Shown here: piece by piece, positions 3,046 through 21,192 of the stretch
How positions within the stretch are numbered: the first letter of the stretch is position 1
Layout of the letters: every line of letters starts with the position of its first letter
NCBI RefSeq assembly: GCF_001735745.1
Contig: NZ_CP017260.1
Coordinates: 1-32,000, forward strand
DNA: 32,000 nt
Origin: Formosa sp. Hel1_33_131
Lineage (GTDB): Bacteria > Bacteroidota > Bacteroidia > Flavobacteriales > Flavobacteriaceae
Reading direction: 5' to 3'
Made by a program: the position numbers and the translations under genes
Notes under the pieces: generated by a model
Seen by the model: only the letters and a program-made list of their open reading frames with translations
Database searches by the model: none
What the model was told of the DNA's origin: nothing

Positions 3046-4269
3046 ATGAAAAGAAAAGCTCTACTCCTATTAATAGCAATTATAAGTATTAATAGCTATT
3101 CACAAATATCTTTTGAAAAAGGGTATTACATTGATAACTCTGACAAAAAAATTAATTGTTTAATCAAAAATATTGATTGGGTGAATAACCCCAGTGAAAT
3201 TGAATACAAACTTTCAGAAAATACAAAAGCTAAATATATTGGTATCACATCAATTAAAGAATTTGGAATTCTAAAGGCCTCAAAATACATTAGAAGTGCC
3301 GTTAAAATAGATCGGTCGAGTGGGAACTTAAACTACTTGAGCGATACTAAAGCACCGATATTTAAAGAAGAACAGCTATTTCTAAAAGTAATAATAGAAG
3401 GCAAAGCTAATTTATACCATTATAAAGAAGGGAATTTAGAACGATACTTTTATAATAAAGGAAACGCAGCTATAGAACAGTTGGTTTTTAAAAATTATAA
3501 AATCAATGAATACGATTTAGGTAAAAATAACAGGTTTAAACAACAATTATGGAATGATTTAAAATGTTCCTCAATTACGATGAAAAACATTGAAAATTTG
3601 GAATATAAAAAAAATAGTTTGATTCGGTTTTTTACTGAATTTAATGTCTGTAGTAATTCAGAGTTTATCAACTATGAAAAAAAACAAAAAATAGATTTAT
3701 TTAATTTAACTCTAAGGCCTCGCCTTAATAATTCTTCTTTAAACATTCAAAATTCTAGTTATAGCACTTCAGATACTAAATTTAGTAATAAATTAAGTAT
3801 CGGTTTTGGTTTAGAAGCAGAATATATATTTCCTTTTAATAAAAATAAATGGTCTGTTTTTATAGAACCTACTTATCAAAACTATAAGGCAGAAAAAACA
3901 ACTGATGTAAGTAATGTTTTAGGAGGTAAAATAATATCAGAAGTAAACTATAATTCTATTGAAGTTCCTTTAGGGATAAGGCATTATTTTTTTATAAATA
4001 GTACTTCTAAAGTTTTTATTAATGCTTCTTACGTGTTAGATTTTAGTTTTAAAACTTCAATCGAACAAAAAAGATCAGATAACTCAAATTTTAAATCCTT
4101 AAAAATTGATTCTCGAAACAATTTAGCATTCGGAATGGGTTACAAACTAAATGATAAATATGGTTTAGAGTTCAGATATCAGACCAGTAGGGAAGTTTTA
4201 GGAGATTATGTTTTTTGGAGTTCAGACTTCAAAACAGTATCAATAATATTTGGGTACACAATTTTTTAA
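3046..4269 (+). CDS. Putative outer-membrane beta-barrel protein
   Basis: I prefer the start at MKRKALLLLIAIISINSYSQ (signal peptide) over the track start at 3004. The C-terminal half has alternating beta-strand patterns and ends in an aromatic residue (GYTIF). Confidence 0.6.
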   Translation: MKRKALLLLIAIISINSYSQISFEKGYYIDNSDKKINCLIKNIDWVNNPSEIEYKLSENTKAKYIGITSIKEFGILKASKYIRSAVKIDRSSGNLNYLSDTKAPIFKEEQLFLKVIIEGKANLYHYKEGNLERYFYNKGNAAIEQLVFKNYKINEYDLGKNNRFKQQLWNDLKCSSITMKNIENLEYKKNSLIRFFTEFNVCSNSEFINYEKKQKIDLFNLTLRPRLNNSSLNIQNSSYSTSDTKFSNKLSIGFGLEAEYIFPFNKNKWSVFIEPTYQNYKAEKTTDVSNVLGGKIISEVNYNSIEVPLGIRHYFFINSTSKVFINASYVLDFSFKTSIEQKRSDNSNFKSLKIDSRNNLAFGMGYKLNDKYGLEFRYQTSREVLGDYVFWSSDFKTVSIIFGYTIF

Positions 4270-5002: not shown

Positions 5003-8000
5003 ATGAAAAAAACAGTACTTCTTAGAATAGTGATAATCCTAATAACTTTTATTACTTCAGCTCAAACCAATATTGTAAATAATGCAAGTGGAGATTGGAA
5101 GTCCTTAATACAACTAGAAAATTTTGATCCCAATGATGATCAGCAATCCAATGCAGATACCGATTTTGTTGGGAATGCTACACATGCAATTATGGAAACT
5201 CAAAATGAAACCGTTTCCTTTAATGATGGTATAACAGATGATGTTTATTACTTTAGAGTCAGAATGGGACAAAGCAACCCCAATGCATCTTTCTATTTTG
5301 GATTGGATATTAGTGGCGATTATATCGCTGATATATTTATTGAAGCTAATGTGAAAAGTCAGACACCTTTTGTGGCATTTCATTTGAGAGATTACTCAAT
5401 GTCTGGACTGTCTCCTTCCCAAACATCCTGGTTAAATGGCTCTCAAAATAATGAGTTAGAGTTAACTTCTAGAAACGCAGTGATCAGTGACTACAGTGCT
5501 GGAACTGATTTAGACGGTGGAAATAGCGGGACCGATTTTTGGATAAAATTTGGTTTTACAGAAGAAAGTATAAAAGCCTATGTGTTAGATAATTTTGGTT
5601 TGTCAATCGATGGAGATTCAATTATCGCATTGTATGGTTTTACGTCCACGAGTCAAACATCAAATGGAGATGTTATTGGAGTTGATGACCGTATTCAAGG
5701 AGAACTTGATAGAACTTGGGTCGATTTAGGCGTGGTTATTAATGGGACTTTAAATAATATCACTTCCGGGAATATTGTAATTCCAACCGTCAATTTTTTA
5801 ACTACAGAGAATACCACACCTACATTAACTGGCAGTTGGGGAAGCACCATGTTAGGCGATGACAGCTTGTCAGTAAGCTTAAATGGAACCGTTTATACGA
5901 CGGATAATGGATTGCTTATAGACACTCTAAATTGGAGCTTACCCATCGGGGAAGTTTTAAGTTCTGGAACCTATGGTGTAATCGTAACCGTTTCTAGAAG
6001 TTCAAATGGGCAAACAGTTTCGGATACGACAACCAATGAATTGACAATACAAGACACTCCCTTTTATTGTGATTATAATGCCTATCTATTTCAACACAAC
6101 GATGTCTATGCCATCGATTTAGCTTCTGGAAATTCATATACAGTTGCAACCGACATAACACCAGGAAATATCAATGCTGCGGCTTATAATCCTATAGATG
6201 GATTTATTTGGGGTTCGTTAAGTGCACCCTCAAAAACCATTGTACGGATTGGTAAGAACTTTGAAACCAACCTTTTTTATATTGATGAGTTGCCCATAAA
6301 CGGACGCTATGTTGGAGGTGTGAGTGCCTCAGGAATCTATTATTTAAAAGGTGACGGCACAACCTATCATAGCATCGATTTAAATCCAAATTCTGCCAAC
6401 TATAGTCAGTATATGGCTACTCTAACTTTATCTCAAGATATAAATATCCATGATTGGGCATTTAATGCCGTAGATAATTTGTTGTATTCCATTGAAAAAG
6501 GATCCAATATTTTATACCGTATAAATGCCGAAACCGGAACTGTACAAAGCTTGGGTGAAGTGCCAATTCTCTCCGGATTAAATTATACCTATGGCGCTGT
6601 TTATTTTGATGCTTCAGGGCGATTTTATGTCAGTGCCAATCAAACAGGAACCATCTATATCATCCAAAACGTTCAAGACTTGAATGCTAACAGTACCATG
6701 AATTCGAATCTATTTGCTTTTGGACCTTCCAGTTCTAGTAATGATGGTGCGCGTTGCCCAACGGCTCCAGTACCTCAGGAAGATTGTATCAATGGACTAG
6801 ACGATGATGGTGATGGATTAATCGATTGTGATGACCCTTCATGTTCTGGAGTTGCATCTTGTCCAGTTATAGAAGATCCAACGACTGGTGGTAATTCAGG
6901 GGGTTTAGAAAGTAATAACAGACTCTCTCAGCAAATTAGTAAACGAAATTTTAAACGCGCTAAAACAAGTTATAGGTTTGATAAAGCAACTGCAAAGCAA
7001 TTTGAAAAATCGATATCCTACGGAAGAAATGCTTCAAACAACGGATACCAATTTGAATTATCAGACTTCATTCCTCTTGAAGTTGTGAATGAAGATCTTG
7101 TGATTGAATCTTCTCCTAGAGATTTAATAGGCATTACCAATGCTTCAGATGTTTATTCTGTTGATTATTTAAGAGCGGGTGAAAATGTAAGTTCTATATT
7201 GGTTCTAAAAACGGAGGATGGTGTCTATGAACATACCAAATATATTTGTGATCGTTTATTAGGTGCTCAGTTAATTTCGGTATCGACTCTAGAAATTCAA
7301 GATCAACAATTCATAAAAGCGTTGATAAAAAATACCGATGGCTCCTTAGAATTTGTTTTGAGTCTTTCTGCAAAAGTAACAGATGACAACAACTTTGCTA
7401 TTGAGAGTCATTGGAATTTAGATAAGTATGAAGCGGATACAGCGTTTTATAATTTCCAAATATGGTCTAACTCTTTAGATGATTTATTACGTCTTGGAAA
7501 AGAAGTGGTGCGTTTATTAGAGGTTCAAAAGCCCATTGTAGCGTATCATAATTCTGCACCCCCTTCTGTATTTGTTAGAAAAGGCAAATACCACAACGGC
7601 AAACTCGATTTACAAATTGTAAATACCAACGGAACTCATACCATTACGTTTGATGGTGGTCTTAAGAGCCACAGAAACCAATTCGGTGGAGCAGGTATCG
7701 TCAACCATAGATCTAGAGGGTAATTACATCACCAATATGGAAATAGATGCTGGAAACTTGTTTGATATTGGTTTTAGAATCGGTGATGGTATTTCAATTC
7801 CAGATGATTTATTTATGTCTGATGGTCCTTGGGGCTATGATGATGCCCCAGACACTATGCTCGTTCATACGTATGAGGTAAATCCTAATGAGGAACCATT
7901 TCATGAGGATGAGTTTGCTGTCGAACGTAATATAGAGTTAGTCGGCAGTACCAATGCATATATGGCTGCTTACAGAGCCCTCACCCCAAAGTTTAGTCCT

Positions 8001-8684: not shown

Positions 8685-9182
8685 CTACATCCCTAATTCC
8701 AGTAGTTTCTTAGAAAATTTTTCTTTTTTACGAGTGTCAATAGAATCACATACTCGAATATAATGGGACATTATATCTTTATTATTAATGCTCATCTTAA
8801 TTAATCGTCCACTAACTAAAGAGGTGACGCCATCATTTTCGATATTAGAAATGGTGTTTTTACTAAATCCTAAAATAACACTTAATGTTGATGCAGCAAT
8901 GTGGTGTTTTTTCCTGAAACGAATAATTTCTTCTGGAGCTGCCGCTCCTTTAGAAATAAGATAAGCACTCTTTAGTGATTTTAAATTACGATTCATTTGA
9001 CTCTTGGTATAAAACGCAACCTTATGCTCCCTATGAATCATACCAGTATTTTCATCCACTTCATAATCCAAATAATACACTTCCTTGTATGATAATATAA
9101 TCCCTTTGACTTTTTTTTCTACAGTTCTTTCTAATTCATTTGTAGGTTTTTGTTCTCTTGTTATATTTTTTTTTGCTTCCAT
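8685..9182 (-). CDS. MqsA-like HTH antitoxin (type II TA)
   Basis: 165 aa. The segment PEEIIRFRKKHHIAASTLSVILGFSKNTISNIENDGVTSLVSGRLIKM resembles the MqsA linker plus XRE-type HTH (E. coli PEFIVKVRKK...). It starts 5 nt downstream of the toxin stop. Confidence 0.7.
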   Translation of the reverse strand: MEAKKNITREQKPTNELERTVEKKVKGIILSYKEVYYLDYEVDENTGMIHREHKVAFYTKSQMNRNLKSLKSAYLISKGAAAPEEIIRFRKKHHIAASTLSVILGFSKNTISNIENDGVTSLVSGRLIKMSINNKDIMSHYIRVCDSIDTRKKEKFSKKLLELGM

Positions 9183-19194: not shown

Positions 19195-19439
19195 TCCCCG
19201 CTACCGCACGAATCCTTTCGTGTGGTAATTTAACATTCTAAAAACCAGCACATCATCTATAAATCCTTTTTGACCTGCATAATCAACGGCACTACTATAA
19301 ACATATTCTTCTGGATTATGAAATTTATAATTTCTACTCATCTAACCTCCTTCTTAAATTTAAAATACAATTCTTTGTTTTTATCAAACTCGTTACTTTT
19401 CTTTATGACCACACGAAAGGATTCGTGCGGCAGCGAGGG
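19195..19439 (-). mobile_element. Miniature RAYT-like element, copy A (internally deleted Y1 transposase gene between hairpin inverted repeats)
   Basis: Terminal inverted repeats of ~30 bp (…accgcacgaatcctttcgtgtggt / accacacgaaaggattcgtgcggcagcgaggg), each itself an imperfect palindrome. The minus-strand ORF 19201-19341 reads MSRNYKFHNPEEYVYSSAVDYAGQKGFIDDVLVF... Confidence 0.7.
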
Positions 19440-19794
19440 TCAACAAACTTTATAGGATTATTTTTGACAAAATTATAAGGCGATAAAGATAAGTTTTGAG
19501 GAATTTCAGCTAAAGGGTCAAGGTTCATCCAACGTCCCAAAGCAGGATCATAATTTCTTGCAGAGACATCGTACCAATCCAATCCAATCCGAGTTCTTCC
19601 CCAGACTCTTTACCTCCAAATTTAAAACGTGACGCCACGCTATTTCTAAAGGCGCTCATGTTATTATTGTACCCTTTATGTTCAAGTCCAAAGGGATAGA
19701 AGCCCCCCGTCTTTTTTAAGGGCTTTACCTCTTTTTTTGAGTATGCCAACCTTAAATTTGGTACAGTTTCAATATGTAATTTTAGACAACCCAT
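19440..19794 (-). pseudogene. Orphan RHS/YD repeat-associated core fragment, frameshifted and 3'-truncated
   Basis: FYPFGLEHKGYNN...FKFGGKESGEELGLDW, then in the +1 frame YDVSARNYDPALGRWMNLDPLAE...SPYNFVKNNPIKFVD. The frame break is at (CCAAT)3 19574-19590. The ORF runs into element copy A. Confidence 0.7.
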
Positions 19795-19872
19795 GTGCTA
19801 TTCCTAAACTAATTCTTTGTCATGAATTGACCTAATGTTTCTCTAAAAATCATACGTTTGGAATGATTTATG

Positions 19873-19896
19873 TATCTTTGTTTATCTAAAAGATAA
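19873..19896 (+). promoter_or_regulatory. Putative TA promoter -7 box TATCTTTG (19873-19880) and palindrome TTATCT-AAA-AGATAA (19882-19896)
   Basis: The TAnnTTTG match lies 20 nt before ATG 19901, with the palindrome between the box and the start. I found no well-spaced -33 element. Confidence 0.35.
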
Positions 19897-19900
19897 TATT

Positions 19901-20149
19901 ATGGGAGCATTAGAATTAAGAGCTAAACTGATAGAACAATTTAATTTGTTTATACAAGACGATTCAAAACTTATAGCTTTAGATGGTGTTTTTGATTCTA
20001 TTAATACATCTACACAAGCCCCATCTATTATTCCAGAGGAACATTATAAAATTGTTGAAGAACGTCGTCGCAAATATCATGCAGGAGAAACAAGTGGTTC
20101 TACTTGGGACGAAGTCAGACAAAAATTGAGAAATAAGTATGGGTTCTAA
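19901..20149 (+). CDS. Addiction-module antitoxin (Unstab_antitox-like)
   Basis: 82 aa. The C-terminus IIPEEHYKIVEERRRKYHAGETSGSTWDEVRQKLRNKY fits the 'putative addiction module component' pattern (…Y..g…g.sWeEVk.kL). It overlaps the toxin by 11 nt. Confidence 0.75.
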   Translation: MGALELRAKLIEQFNLFIQDDSKLIALDGVFDSINTSTQAPSIIPEEHYKIVEERRRKYHAGETSGSTWDEVRQKLRNKYGF

Positions 20150-20432
20150 ATTAATCATTGAACTTGAAGCGCAAATAGAAATTGATAAAGCAATAGAATG
20201 GTACGAGTCCAAGCAAATTGGATTAGGTGCAGATTTTTTCAATTATTTAGATGGCTATTTTCAAACCCTAAAAAATGGTGAGGCATTATTTGAAATAAAG
20301 AGAAAGCCAGTCTTTCGAGAACTTCCGTTAAAAAGATTTCCTTACATAATTATATACGAAGAATATCAAAATCAGGTGATTGTATATTCTGTATTTAATA
20401 CTTTTCAAGACCAAAATAAAAAAACGAAATAA
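20139..20432 (+). CDS. RelE/ParE family toxin
   Basis: 97 aa. AQIEIDKAIEWY...GLGADF...LKRFPYIIIYEE..QVIVYSVFN matches the ParE-type pattern (FPYxIxY). Confidence 0.8.
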   Translation: MGSKLIIELEAQIEIDKAIEWYESKQIGLGADFFNYLDGYFQTLKNGEALFEIKRKPVFRELPLKRFPYIIIYEEYQNQVIVYSVFNTFQDQNKKTK

Positions 20433-20461
20433 ATTTCATTTTTATTATTCAGAATAAGGTA

Positions 20462-20746
20462 TTATCTGTTTAAACTTTTATATCCATCTACTCCATGTTC
20501 TTGTGCAAATTGACGAGCTACCATATGCCCTTCAAAGTGAACTTCTCTTTCTCCCCAAATACTCCAAATAAATTTATAATTGTTATCCTTAAGAAATTTA
20601 TTAAATAAGTCTTTCCTTAAATAGACAAAATGTTGATTAGAATTATAGTCGTCATAATTCCTAAGATTAATTGACGCTAAATCTCCATTCCTTTCGTAAA
20701 GATTAAAAGTTTGTGGAACATCAATTAAATCTAAATGAAATGCAAT
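20462..20746 (-). pseudogene. 5'-truncated ORF remnant of unknown function
   Basis: A 94-codon open frame (IAFHLDLIDVPQTFNLYERNGDL...IWSIWGEREVHFEGHMVARQFAQEHGVDGYKSLNR*). A TAA lies immediately upstream and there is no ATG/GTG/TTG until codon ~75. Confidence 0.4.
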
Positions 20747-20801
20747 TTATTTTGCTACAACATTCTGATGACCTGCCTGATTAACAGAACTATGATAGCT
20801 C

Positions 20802-21047
20802 TCCCCGGATACCGCACGAATCCTTTCGTGTGGTGATTTAACATTCTAAAAACCAGCACATCATCTATAAATCCTTTTTGATCTGCATAATCAACGGCAC
20901 TACTATAAACATATTCTTCTGGATTATGAAATTTATAATTTCTACTCATCTAACCTCCTTCTTAAATTTAAAATACAATTCTTTGTTTTTATCAAACTCG
21001 TTACTTTTCTTTATGACCACACGAAAGGATTCGTGCGGCAGCGAGGG
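20802..21047 (-). mobile_element. Miniature RAYT-like element, copy B
   Basis: Matches copy A over ~237 bp with 2 substitutions plus a small indel at the left tip, in the same orientation. It contains ORF 20755-20949 (MSRNYKFHNPEEYVYSSAVDYADQKGFIDDVLVF...). Confidence 0.7.
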
Positions 21048-21077
21048 ATAAAAAGTAAAATGAGAATTTTAAGTTTC

Positions 21078-21095: not shown

Positions 21096-21192
21096 GATTT
21101 AGGAACTCTAAAGTTATAACGAAAAGTTAATTTAAAAAAATGGTTGTCTTAAATTTTAACAATTCGGTAACATACAATTGAAATATATCACA

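Follow-up and report, generated by a model that had tools for sequence, protein, structure and literature searches.

The first 32,000 nucleotides of contig NZ_CP017260.1 of Formosa sp. Hel1_33_131 (the window) contain two near-identical direct repeats. These are very probably non-autonomous miniature derivatives ('mini-RAYTs') of a Bacteroidota REP-associated tyrosine transposase (RAYT) element, where REP denotes a repetitive extragenic palindrome, and were dispersed by the mechanism proposed below. The parent would be an insertion sequence (IS)-like unit of ~700 bp in which a gene for a HUH/Y1 transposase of 184–188 aa is placed between a 31-nt REP and the same REP inverted. Within the Formosa lineage, loss of the DNA between two directly repeated CCAGAAG motifs would have removed the whole catalytic core; what survives is the two REP ends together with the leader, the start codon and the final ~23 codons of the gene. 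An original prediction, made from the letters of this DNA, had read the repeats as internally deleted RAYT genes, and alignment with full-length relatives now demonstrates, at the level of sequence, that such a gene is the source of the mini-element. Neither window copy encodes a transposase; both are remnants.

A repeat search of the window aligned positions 19196–19446 with 20804–21054 at 97% identity. Trimming with BLASTN gave a unit of 244 nt for copy 1 (19196–19439, minus strand) and 245 nt for copy 2 (20803–21047, minus strand), with 98.4% identity, as expected from the predicted pair of ~245-bp repeats differing by two substitutions and at one tip. The substitutions are at element positions 166 and 213, and the tip reads GGTAGCGGGG in copy 1 and GGTATCCGGGG in copy 2, giving the latter the 3′ tip variant TATCCGGGG. 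The copy 2 tip and right flank recur in ~15 independent contigs (L147–L151, L162 and L167–L176; loci are given as L numbers and proteins as P numbers). Each element comprises a REP unit, a 67-nt leader, the deleted RAYT open reading frame (ORF) and a second REP unit, and its borders fall exactly where the conserved REP tail stops on its outer side.

The terminal inverted repeats (TIRs) of each copy are 34–36 nt long and show 86–91% complementarity. They have the palindromic core that had been predicted, with the correction that its loop is the 4-nt TCCT rather than TCC. This 22-nt core, CCGCACGAATCCTTTCGTGTGG, occurs four times in the window against an expectation of 0.00 from shuffled sequences. 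As single-stranded DNA it is predicted to fold into a 9-bp stem, which includes a G·T pair, closed by the TCCT loop. The predicted energy is −8.4 to −9.6 kcal/mol (z −4.3 to −6.6) for the strand with the G·T pair and −6.7 to −7.8 kcal/mol for the complementary A·C strand. Each end of the element is thus a 31-nt REP-like unit consisting of a C-rich tail (CCCCGCTA or CCCTCGCTG) and the hairpin CCGCACGAA-TCCT-TTCGTGTGG, the two units being inverted. In copy 1 the 5′ unit (tail CCCTCGCTG) is at 19409–19439 on the minus strand, and its inverted partner, the 3′ unit (tail CCCCGCTA, same hairpin), reads on the plus strand at 19196–19225. The corresponding units of copy 2 are at 21017–21047 (minus) and 20803–20833 (plus, variant tail CCCCGGATA). 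Between the arms lies a non-palindromic spacer of 175 nt that holds the leader and the RAYT coding remnant.

The minus-strand ORFs read as originally quoted. In copy 1 a 46-aa ORF (19201–19341), beginning MSRNYKFHNPE and continuing EYVYSSAVDYAGQKGFIDDVLVF…, passes through the 3′ hairpin to a TAG in the tail. The copy 2 ORF (20755–20949) is longer, at 64 aa, because the tip variant destroys this stop and the frame runs 18 codons into the flank. Neither window ORF contains the HUH or catalytic Tyr motif, both of which fall within the deleted codons 12 to ~158. A Shine–Dalgarno (SD)-like AAGGAGGT precedes both ORFs on the minus strand (19345–19352 and 20953–20960), as predicted, although it ends 3 nt ahead of the ATG (4 nt for its GGAGG core) and not 5. 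So strong a site is unusual for Bacteroidota and is not present in the leaders of any full-length relative that we inspected. At several loci, in full-length and mini forms alike, the 5′ end leaves a reading frame open: an upstream ORF crosses the 5′ REP and the leader and ends at an ATGA overlapping the start of the RAYT or mini-ORF (L117:73–504, L165:1–321, L004:2450–3004 and L011:1–179).

The 46- and 64-aa peptides have no match in Pfam or NCBIfam. They are too short and chimeric for profile searches, and their identity was therefore settled through full-length relatives. In a word-indexed protein search the mini-peptide turned up again in Formosa sp. Hel1_33_131 (FORMB_14480 and FORMB_26130) and in dozens of marine metagenome contigs, together with other short proteins that join the same N terminus to the same C terminus at other points. 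With one short derivative protein as query (P0012), the search returned hundreds of proteins that carry PF01797 and are named 'REP element-mobilizing transposase RayT', with relatives labelled RAYT by both NCBI and JGI. The full-length protein of locus L135 scores 84.2 bits (cut-off 80) against the NCBIfam model NF047646, 'REP-associated tyrosine transposase', over profile positions 4–146 of 146, and falls below the cut-off of the IS200 model NF033573 (25.9 against 55). Full-length protein matches Pfam Y1_Tnp at 34–38 bits, so that the profile match anticipated for the family holds for the homologues and fails for the two peptides themselves; its best match in the PDB, a weak one, is E. coli TnpArep (4ER8). 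The two halves of the mini-peptide align to the two ends of these 184–188-aa proteins, in agreement with the predicted RAYT termini.

The 22-nt hairpin is present in at least 120 genome stretches across the Flavobacteriales, Bacteroidales and Chitinophagales (one genome per species scanned), with hosts that include Flavobacterium, Chryseobacterium, Kaistella, Polaribacter, Croceivirga, Marinifilum, Prolixibacteraceae, Paludibacter and Saprospiraceae. About 25 of these stretches have a plus/minus hairpin pair, 610–780 bp apart, around a gene for a 184–188-aa protein. A full-length gene between the same hairpins, for which the prediction had called, thus exists in many Bacteroidota, the hairpins being in inverted orientation. 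Of the 120 loci, 98 contain a hairpin that has no partner, and solo copies and arrays are seen in L105, L077 and L037.

The full-length relatives contain NH(V/I)H, Y(V/I)HNNP and a C-terminal YSS. TnpA-REP subclass 2.6 (Quentin et al. 2018, PMC6006769) corresponds to RAYT group 5 (Bertels et al. 2017, PMC5581495) and is described as a Bacteroidetes group of ~179 aa with NH[LIV]H, YIH[QN]NP and a C-terminal SS, whose non-GTAG flanking structures also occur elsewhere in the genome (PMC6006769). Judged by inspection of motifs, length and phylum, our full-length relatives fit this subclass; in the comparison with Table 1 of PMC6006769, also made by inspection, the W motif is WR here and not WQ. 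Whole REP–gene–REP units are duplicated in L093 (5063–5740 and 6998–7675, 100% identity) and L117 (434–1133 and 1847–2546, ~99.5%), with identity collapsing at the REP tails, and the element that encodes P0146 occurs in several copies and contexts, with whole units again duplicated between sharp borders in L177 and L179. These duplications show that the subclass behaves like an insertion sequence and not like a single-copy domesticated gene. The general statement that RAYTs are single-copy in each genome, on which the prediction had drawn, therefore fails for this subclass.

Aligned with the full-length proteins, the mini-ORF retains the N-terminal 11 aa and the last ~23 aa. Codons 12 to ~158 are gone, an in-frame loss of ~147 codons that takes the HUH and Tyr motifs with it and is close to the ~150 codons thought to be missing. 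To L117, the closest full-length gene found, the mini-element is at the DNA level 97% identical in its N-terminal 34 nt and 90% identical in its C-terminal 91 nt. It is 88% identical over the C-terminal 93 nt to the gene for P0146, with which it has the residues …PEEYVYSS…FRML in common. The junction is CCAGAAG on the minus strand (19308–19314 in copy 1 and 20916–20922 in copy 2), a microhomology that occurs twice in the parent genes, at the N-terminal HNPE-G and at the C-terminal (N/K)PE-(D/E). A junction inside this repeated motif indicates that the deletion was a microhomology event that happened to remain in frame. L141, from another organism, is a diverged mini-element with the same junction and an L117-like leader, which suggests that the same slip recurred. 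At least ten other, independent deletion derivatives have different breakpoints and most of these are single-locus relics (for example, P0014); another mini-element, in a Bacteroidales metagenome-assembled genome (L101), is present as three copies within 2 kb.

Over 157 occurrences of the hairpin, the 9-nt tail CCCCCGCTN ahead of it is conserved (G at −4 in 94%, C at −3 in 91% and T at −2 in 99%), and this conservation ends abruptly at −9. The same limit forms the border of the Formosa mini-element on both sides and is the point at which identity collapses between the duplicated L093 and L117 units. A conserved tail so sharply bounded implies that the family has a defined REP unit of 31 nt. 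The stem has compensatory variants (CCGCGCGAA…TTCGCGTGG and CCGCACGAT…ATCGTGTGG), and the G·T pair, which renders the two strands non-equivalent, is almost always retained. The canonical 5′ GT[AG]G is not present at the hairpin foot, where the tail is CCCCCGCTN, in agreement with the 'atypical' structures reported for subclass 2.6 (PMC6006769).

The 31-nt unit, CCCCCGCTN followed by CCGCACGAA-TCCT-TTCGTGTGG, is nearly constant base for base over several orders of Bacteroidota (L021–L140). Some Flavobacterium genomes carry tandem arrays of it at a spacing of 70–100 nt (for example, L105:243–1525 and L077:1440–2530), and F. fluviatile has ten hairpins in 8 kb. In Geofilum (L022:6698–6961), about nine tandem 22-nt units (…TGATGTGGCTGCGTCGAAGTCT…) lead into a diverged REP hairpin. 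Phage was considered as a vector and rejected, the hairpin being found in only four viral contigs and the RAYT in none.

Formosa-type loci were gathered by means of the mini-peptides and of the sucD and 521-aa proteins of the window. They provide 28 or more copies of the mini-element, 98–100% identical and from independent assemblies. On contigs of the Formosa Hel1_33_131 type these copies adjoin unrelated sequences, 13 or more different flanks on the left and 11 or more on the right, with the border always at the same nucleotide. A unit found at so many flanks in independent assemblies is not a local duplication, which had been named as an outcome that would count against the prediction; on the evidence of these flanks, the window copies are two members of a dispersed family. 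Every test named as able to refute the prediction came out on its side. One 320-kb contig (L001 and L011) has four copies in 13 kb, all in identical orientation. No solo hairpins were seen in the Formosa loci. None of the junctions compared has a target-site duplication, as is expected for HUH/Y1 elements. Close full-length RAYTs with identical hairpins occur in the same metagenomes in other contig backgrounds; the contigs that bear P0146 and the Formosa loci compared have no common segment of 150 nt or more.

Two local arrangements accompany individual copies. In L148 (~8689–8712), L149 and L169, a 24-nt partial duplicate consisting of the 5′ tail, the first stem arm and the loop lies directly ahead of a complete element, to the left of the copy orthologous to window 19196–19439, and looks like hairpin-associated slippage. 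In L004 a 133-nt sequence is repeated with 100% identity (3144–3276 and 5607–5739), after one element and before the next; this order of element, repeat, 2.3 kb, repeat and element resembles Campbell-type integration of a circular cassette.

IS200/IS605 transposases and E. coli TnpA-REP recognize hairpins in single-stranded DNA, cleave at a set spacing from the foot of the hairpin and generate no target duplication. The anatomy of the mini-element fits this HUH/Y1 paradigm, and by analogy it most likely spread through mobilization in trans, with a full-length RAYT supplying the enzyme. Acting on single-stranded DNA, the RAYT would bind the G·T hairpin and cut where the C-rich tail ends on its outer side; the element would then move by the strand-specific peel-and-paste known from IS200/IS605 and suggested for REP doublets (REPINs). 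Once dispersed, the copies may serve as passive, portable 244-bp stretches of homology that delete or swap toxin/immunity cassettes.

Several results weigh against mobilization in trans. No target motif is apparent at any junction compared, and neither a clean empty site nor an excision product was recovered among the loci compared. An intact RAYT was not found in the Formosa-type DNA read (pieces totalling ~250 kb), no Formosa-named record is among the 120 best of 2942 homologues, and metagenomes scanned for a full-length gene bearing the mini-element's own leader gave no matches, a scan of little power with five mini-bearing contigs in the collection. Some re-assortments of flanks come from short-read assemblies, in which a 244-bp repeat can lead to chimeric joins; for the key cases the contigs are long. 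Across strains, orthologous copies carry shuffled combinations of the single-nucleotide polymorphisms (SNPs) at element positions 166, 202 and 213. This indicates recombination between copies and gene conversion, which in part maintains their near-identity; that near-identity therefore neither dates the copying by itself nor proves recent transposition. On another reading the mini-element never transposed as such: homologous recombination, duplication of segments or horizontal exchange would alone have carried it along with toxin/immunity cassettes, and its borders would be inherited from one or a few initial insertions. The clustering of copies in Rhs/polymorphic-toxin islands, the re-assorted flanks and shuffled SNPs, the 133-nt repeat adjoining two elements in L004 and the lack of a RAYT in the Formosa contigs searched all suit such a history. 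We nevertheless consider it quite unlikely, because exchange inside the element re-pairs existing flanks and cannot make new ones, whereas at least 13 left and 11 right unrelated flanks stop at the same nucleotide of the REP tail. That border also bounds the duplicated full-length units elsewhere and the conserved REP in its 157 occurrences.

Two further proposals concern why the element is kept. A functional 46-aa micro-protein, such as a regulator or inhibitor of RAYT expressed from the SD-like site, could account for an ORF that is intact and in frame in all copies, has AAGGAGGT 3 nt ahead of its ATG and is annotated as a peptide in Formosa sp. Hel1_33_131. Such a function seems very improbable given that three of the four coding polymorphisms are non-synonymous, that loss of the stop and extensions of 18–24 aa into arbitrary flank are tolerated (P0001, P0004 and P0009), and that the ATG of the L150 copy runs into an rhs fragment. 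The peptide retains 11 and ~23 residues of the parent and matches no Pfam or NCBIfam family, and quite different remnants are kept in other lineages. The copies might alternatively be retained as classical REPs that act as terminators or mRNA stabilizers at the 3′ ends of genes, a host-level role compatible with a transposon origin and one known for classical REPs (background in PMC6006769). In 8 of the first 10 left-flank types the element follows the preceding gene closely and in the same orientation, and fold prediction gives stable hairpins. Set against this, no T-run follows the hairpins, and several copies interrupt or truncate genes (for example, at an Rhs core end) or are read through by upstream ORFs, and we regard this role as unlikely.

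The kinds of element with which the mini-RAYT invites comparison are already published: the parent family and its odd flanking structures (PMC6006769), REPINs, miniature inverted-repeat transposable elements (MITEs), the palindromic elements called PATEs, and TIRtrons. The resemblance of the full-length relatives to subclass 2.6 extends to their length (184–188 aa), NH(V/I)H, Y(V/I)H(N/Q)NP, C-terminal SS and non-GTAG flanking structures that recur in the genome; the window differs in having an internally deleted member only and no intact one. The published work on the subclasses discarded partial sequences, and the account of subclass 2.6 does not include the 31-nt REP sequence, its conservation across orders, the IS-like duplication of units or miniature derivatives. 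Like REPINs (Bertels & Rainey 2011, PMC3116915; PMC3337134), the mini-element has an inverted pair of REPs, is non-autonomous and multi-copy, lacks target duplications and is presumed to depend on a RAYT in trans. REPINs, by contrast, have a short spacer and fold as a whole, whereas complementarity in the mini-element is confined to the terminal 34–36 nt around its 175-nt non-palindromic spacer. REPINs also number in the hundreds against ~10 copies here, and the cognate single-copy RAYT was not found in the Formosa DNA read. The mini-element arose by internal deletion of a gene, whereas REPINs are proposed to come from duplicated flanking REPs.

Small size (244 bp), TIRs of 34–36 nt, loss of the catalytic core and dispersal over at least 13 flank types are all MITE features. 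MITEs and PATEs of the IS200/IS605 family (Haloquadratum PATEs, PMC3119063; Nezha of cyanobacteria) likewise keep the ends of the autonomous element, lack the transposase, are dispersed and promote rearrangement. The parent here is of RAYT type (NF047646) and not a TnpA of IS200 (NF033573 fails). The ends are true inverted repeats, each with a hairpin, and not the one-strand hairpins of IS200/IS605 ends, and an in-frame gene remnant can still be recognized. TIRtrons and TIRYTs (Di Nocera et al. 2013, PMC3733652) resemble the parent in being RAYT-like genes within partly self-complementary TIRs that form moderately repeated families. TIRYTs belong mostly to subclass 2.1, with helix-turn-helix tails and the TIR motif GGGGWSAS (Quentin et al., PMC6006769); the protein here is 2.6-like and the TIR is CCCCCGCTN plus the hairpin. 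Our literature search found nothing on the hairpin sequence or on RAYTs in Flavobacteria, and nothing linking Formosa Hel1_33_131 with 'transposase'. We found no published description of a deleted but amplified RAYT with a readable gene remnant, of the 31-nt REP and its cross-order conservation, of IS-like duplication in this RAYT subclass or of its role as a break-point in toxin islands.

RAYTs and their REP or REPIN partners are among the commonest bacterial repeats, and how non-autonomous doublets arise from a transposase locus has been posed as an open question (PMC3337134). The mini-element would represent an intermediate on the way from gene to repeat: it has REP ends and a readable remnant, yet it stands at about a dozen sites, documenting a MITE-style route of internal deletion followed by amplification. 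It also defines the REP of a poorly characterized Bacteroidota RAYT subclass as 31 nt, a CCCCCGCTN tail plus a hairpin. The host is an ecologically important flavobacterium of the Formosa Hel1_33_131 type, represented in many marine metagenome assemblies.

Most sites of the mini-element lie inside or at the edge of Rhs/polymorphic-toxin arrays, with large DUF6443/DUF6973 proteins, Imm-NTF2-2 and small orphan ORFs as neighbours. The neighbour of copy 1 in the window is a frameshifted Rhs core-end remnant (19440–19794, minus strand; …YDPALGRWMNLDP…NNPIKFVDP), which meets the element exactly at the junction between core and toxin. The remnant matches NCBIfam TIGR03696 (Rhs_assc_core) with 60.5 bits over profile positions 2–73 of 76. 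Between the copies is a small toxin–antitoxin pair on the plus strand (19901–20432), made up of Unstab_antitox (19901–20149) and a ParE-like frame (20139–20432) that is below the Pfam cut-off. Another mini copy is situated just upstream of an orphan module starting …NNPVFWADPD. The end of the Rhs core as a specific target was considered and set aside, as only two flank types (J and e) are of this kind. L101, with its unrelated neighbours, likewise gave no support to an association with toxin islands as a property of the whole family.

The segment from sucD to the gene for the 521-aa protein exists in at least four states among strains. It holds a single element in L172 (in the middle of a 433-kb contig) and L154. 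In the window and in L147, L149, L151, L167, L169, L175 and L176, two elements surround 1.36 kb with the Rhs remnant and the toxin–antitoxin pair. A larger island has other toxin-like genes ahead of copy 2 (L168, L170, L171 and L173, and also L174), and in L152 and L153 there is no element and the RHS gene is intact. As read from these states, the window copies flank the residue of a toxin island that recombination between copies has been trimming. The mini copies mark the break-points of strain-level variation in Rhs/polymorphic-toxin islands, and in this way the repeats would help to set the stock of contact-dependent weapons in a single population.

Toxin arrays in L179, L183, L186 and L166 contain full-length RAYTs belonging to this clade, in the same genomic niche as the mini-elements. 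The P0146 RAYT is downstream of a 2217-aa SpvB/RHS/FG-GAP/Ntox23 toxin and punctuates an array of orphan cassettes (L179:1–6567, L183 and L186). The P0132 RAYT adjoins an Imm7 immunity gene (L166:396–1460), and the L117 RAYT a YD-repeat fragment. The H-rpt insertion sequences of the ISAs1 family, which sit inside E. coli Rhs elements, are similarly transposable elements found habitually among Rhs core ends and orphan toxin/immunity modules. Their transposase family is unrelated, and H-rpt is not known to have miniature derivatives or hairpin ends. Co-location in four settings (the Formosa minis, the P0146 elements, L166 and L117) raises the idea, which we hold to be improbable, that the RAYT/REP lineage is a cassette-boundary device of polymorphic-toxin islands in marine Flavobacteriaceae. 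If it were, the single-strand hairpins would be sites of cassette excision, capture or swapping, functionally analogous to integron attC, and cassettes would be exchanged through RAYT-catalysed strand transfer or through recombination between copies.

Some individual loci of these islands show further rearrangement. In two close relatives, L152 (2755–8581) and L153 (5309–8575), an RHS-repeat gene of more than 1000 aa lies directly 3′ of sucD, itself 98.5% identical, and homology with the window stops at 21105, 58 nt beyond copy 2. The element 3′ of sucD in L150 (7073–9066) lacks the 3′ hairpin, and its ATG leads in frame into the interior of an rhs gene, which makes an ORF of 632 aa or more that starts MSRNYKFHNPEE…. 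The break falls at the hairpin's inner foot, and L160 is a second, independent loss of the 3′ hairpin from the same place. The right flank of copy 2, 'w2', is a minus-strand gene fragment without a start codon (20462–20802). A decayed, older RAYT 3′ end proposed within this flank (ESYHSSVNQAG…) was dropped because the alignment was unconvincing. The 94-aa open frame of w2 (20462–20745, minus strand) has a weak likeness to the C terminus of the anti-phage protein Avs2 (NF041813, E = 1e-5, far under the cut-off) and probably represents a piece of some nuclease or toxin domain that has stayed behind in the island.

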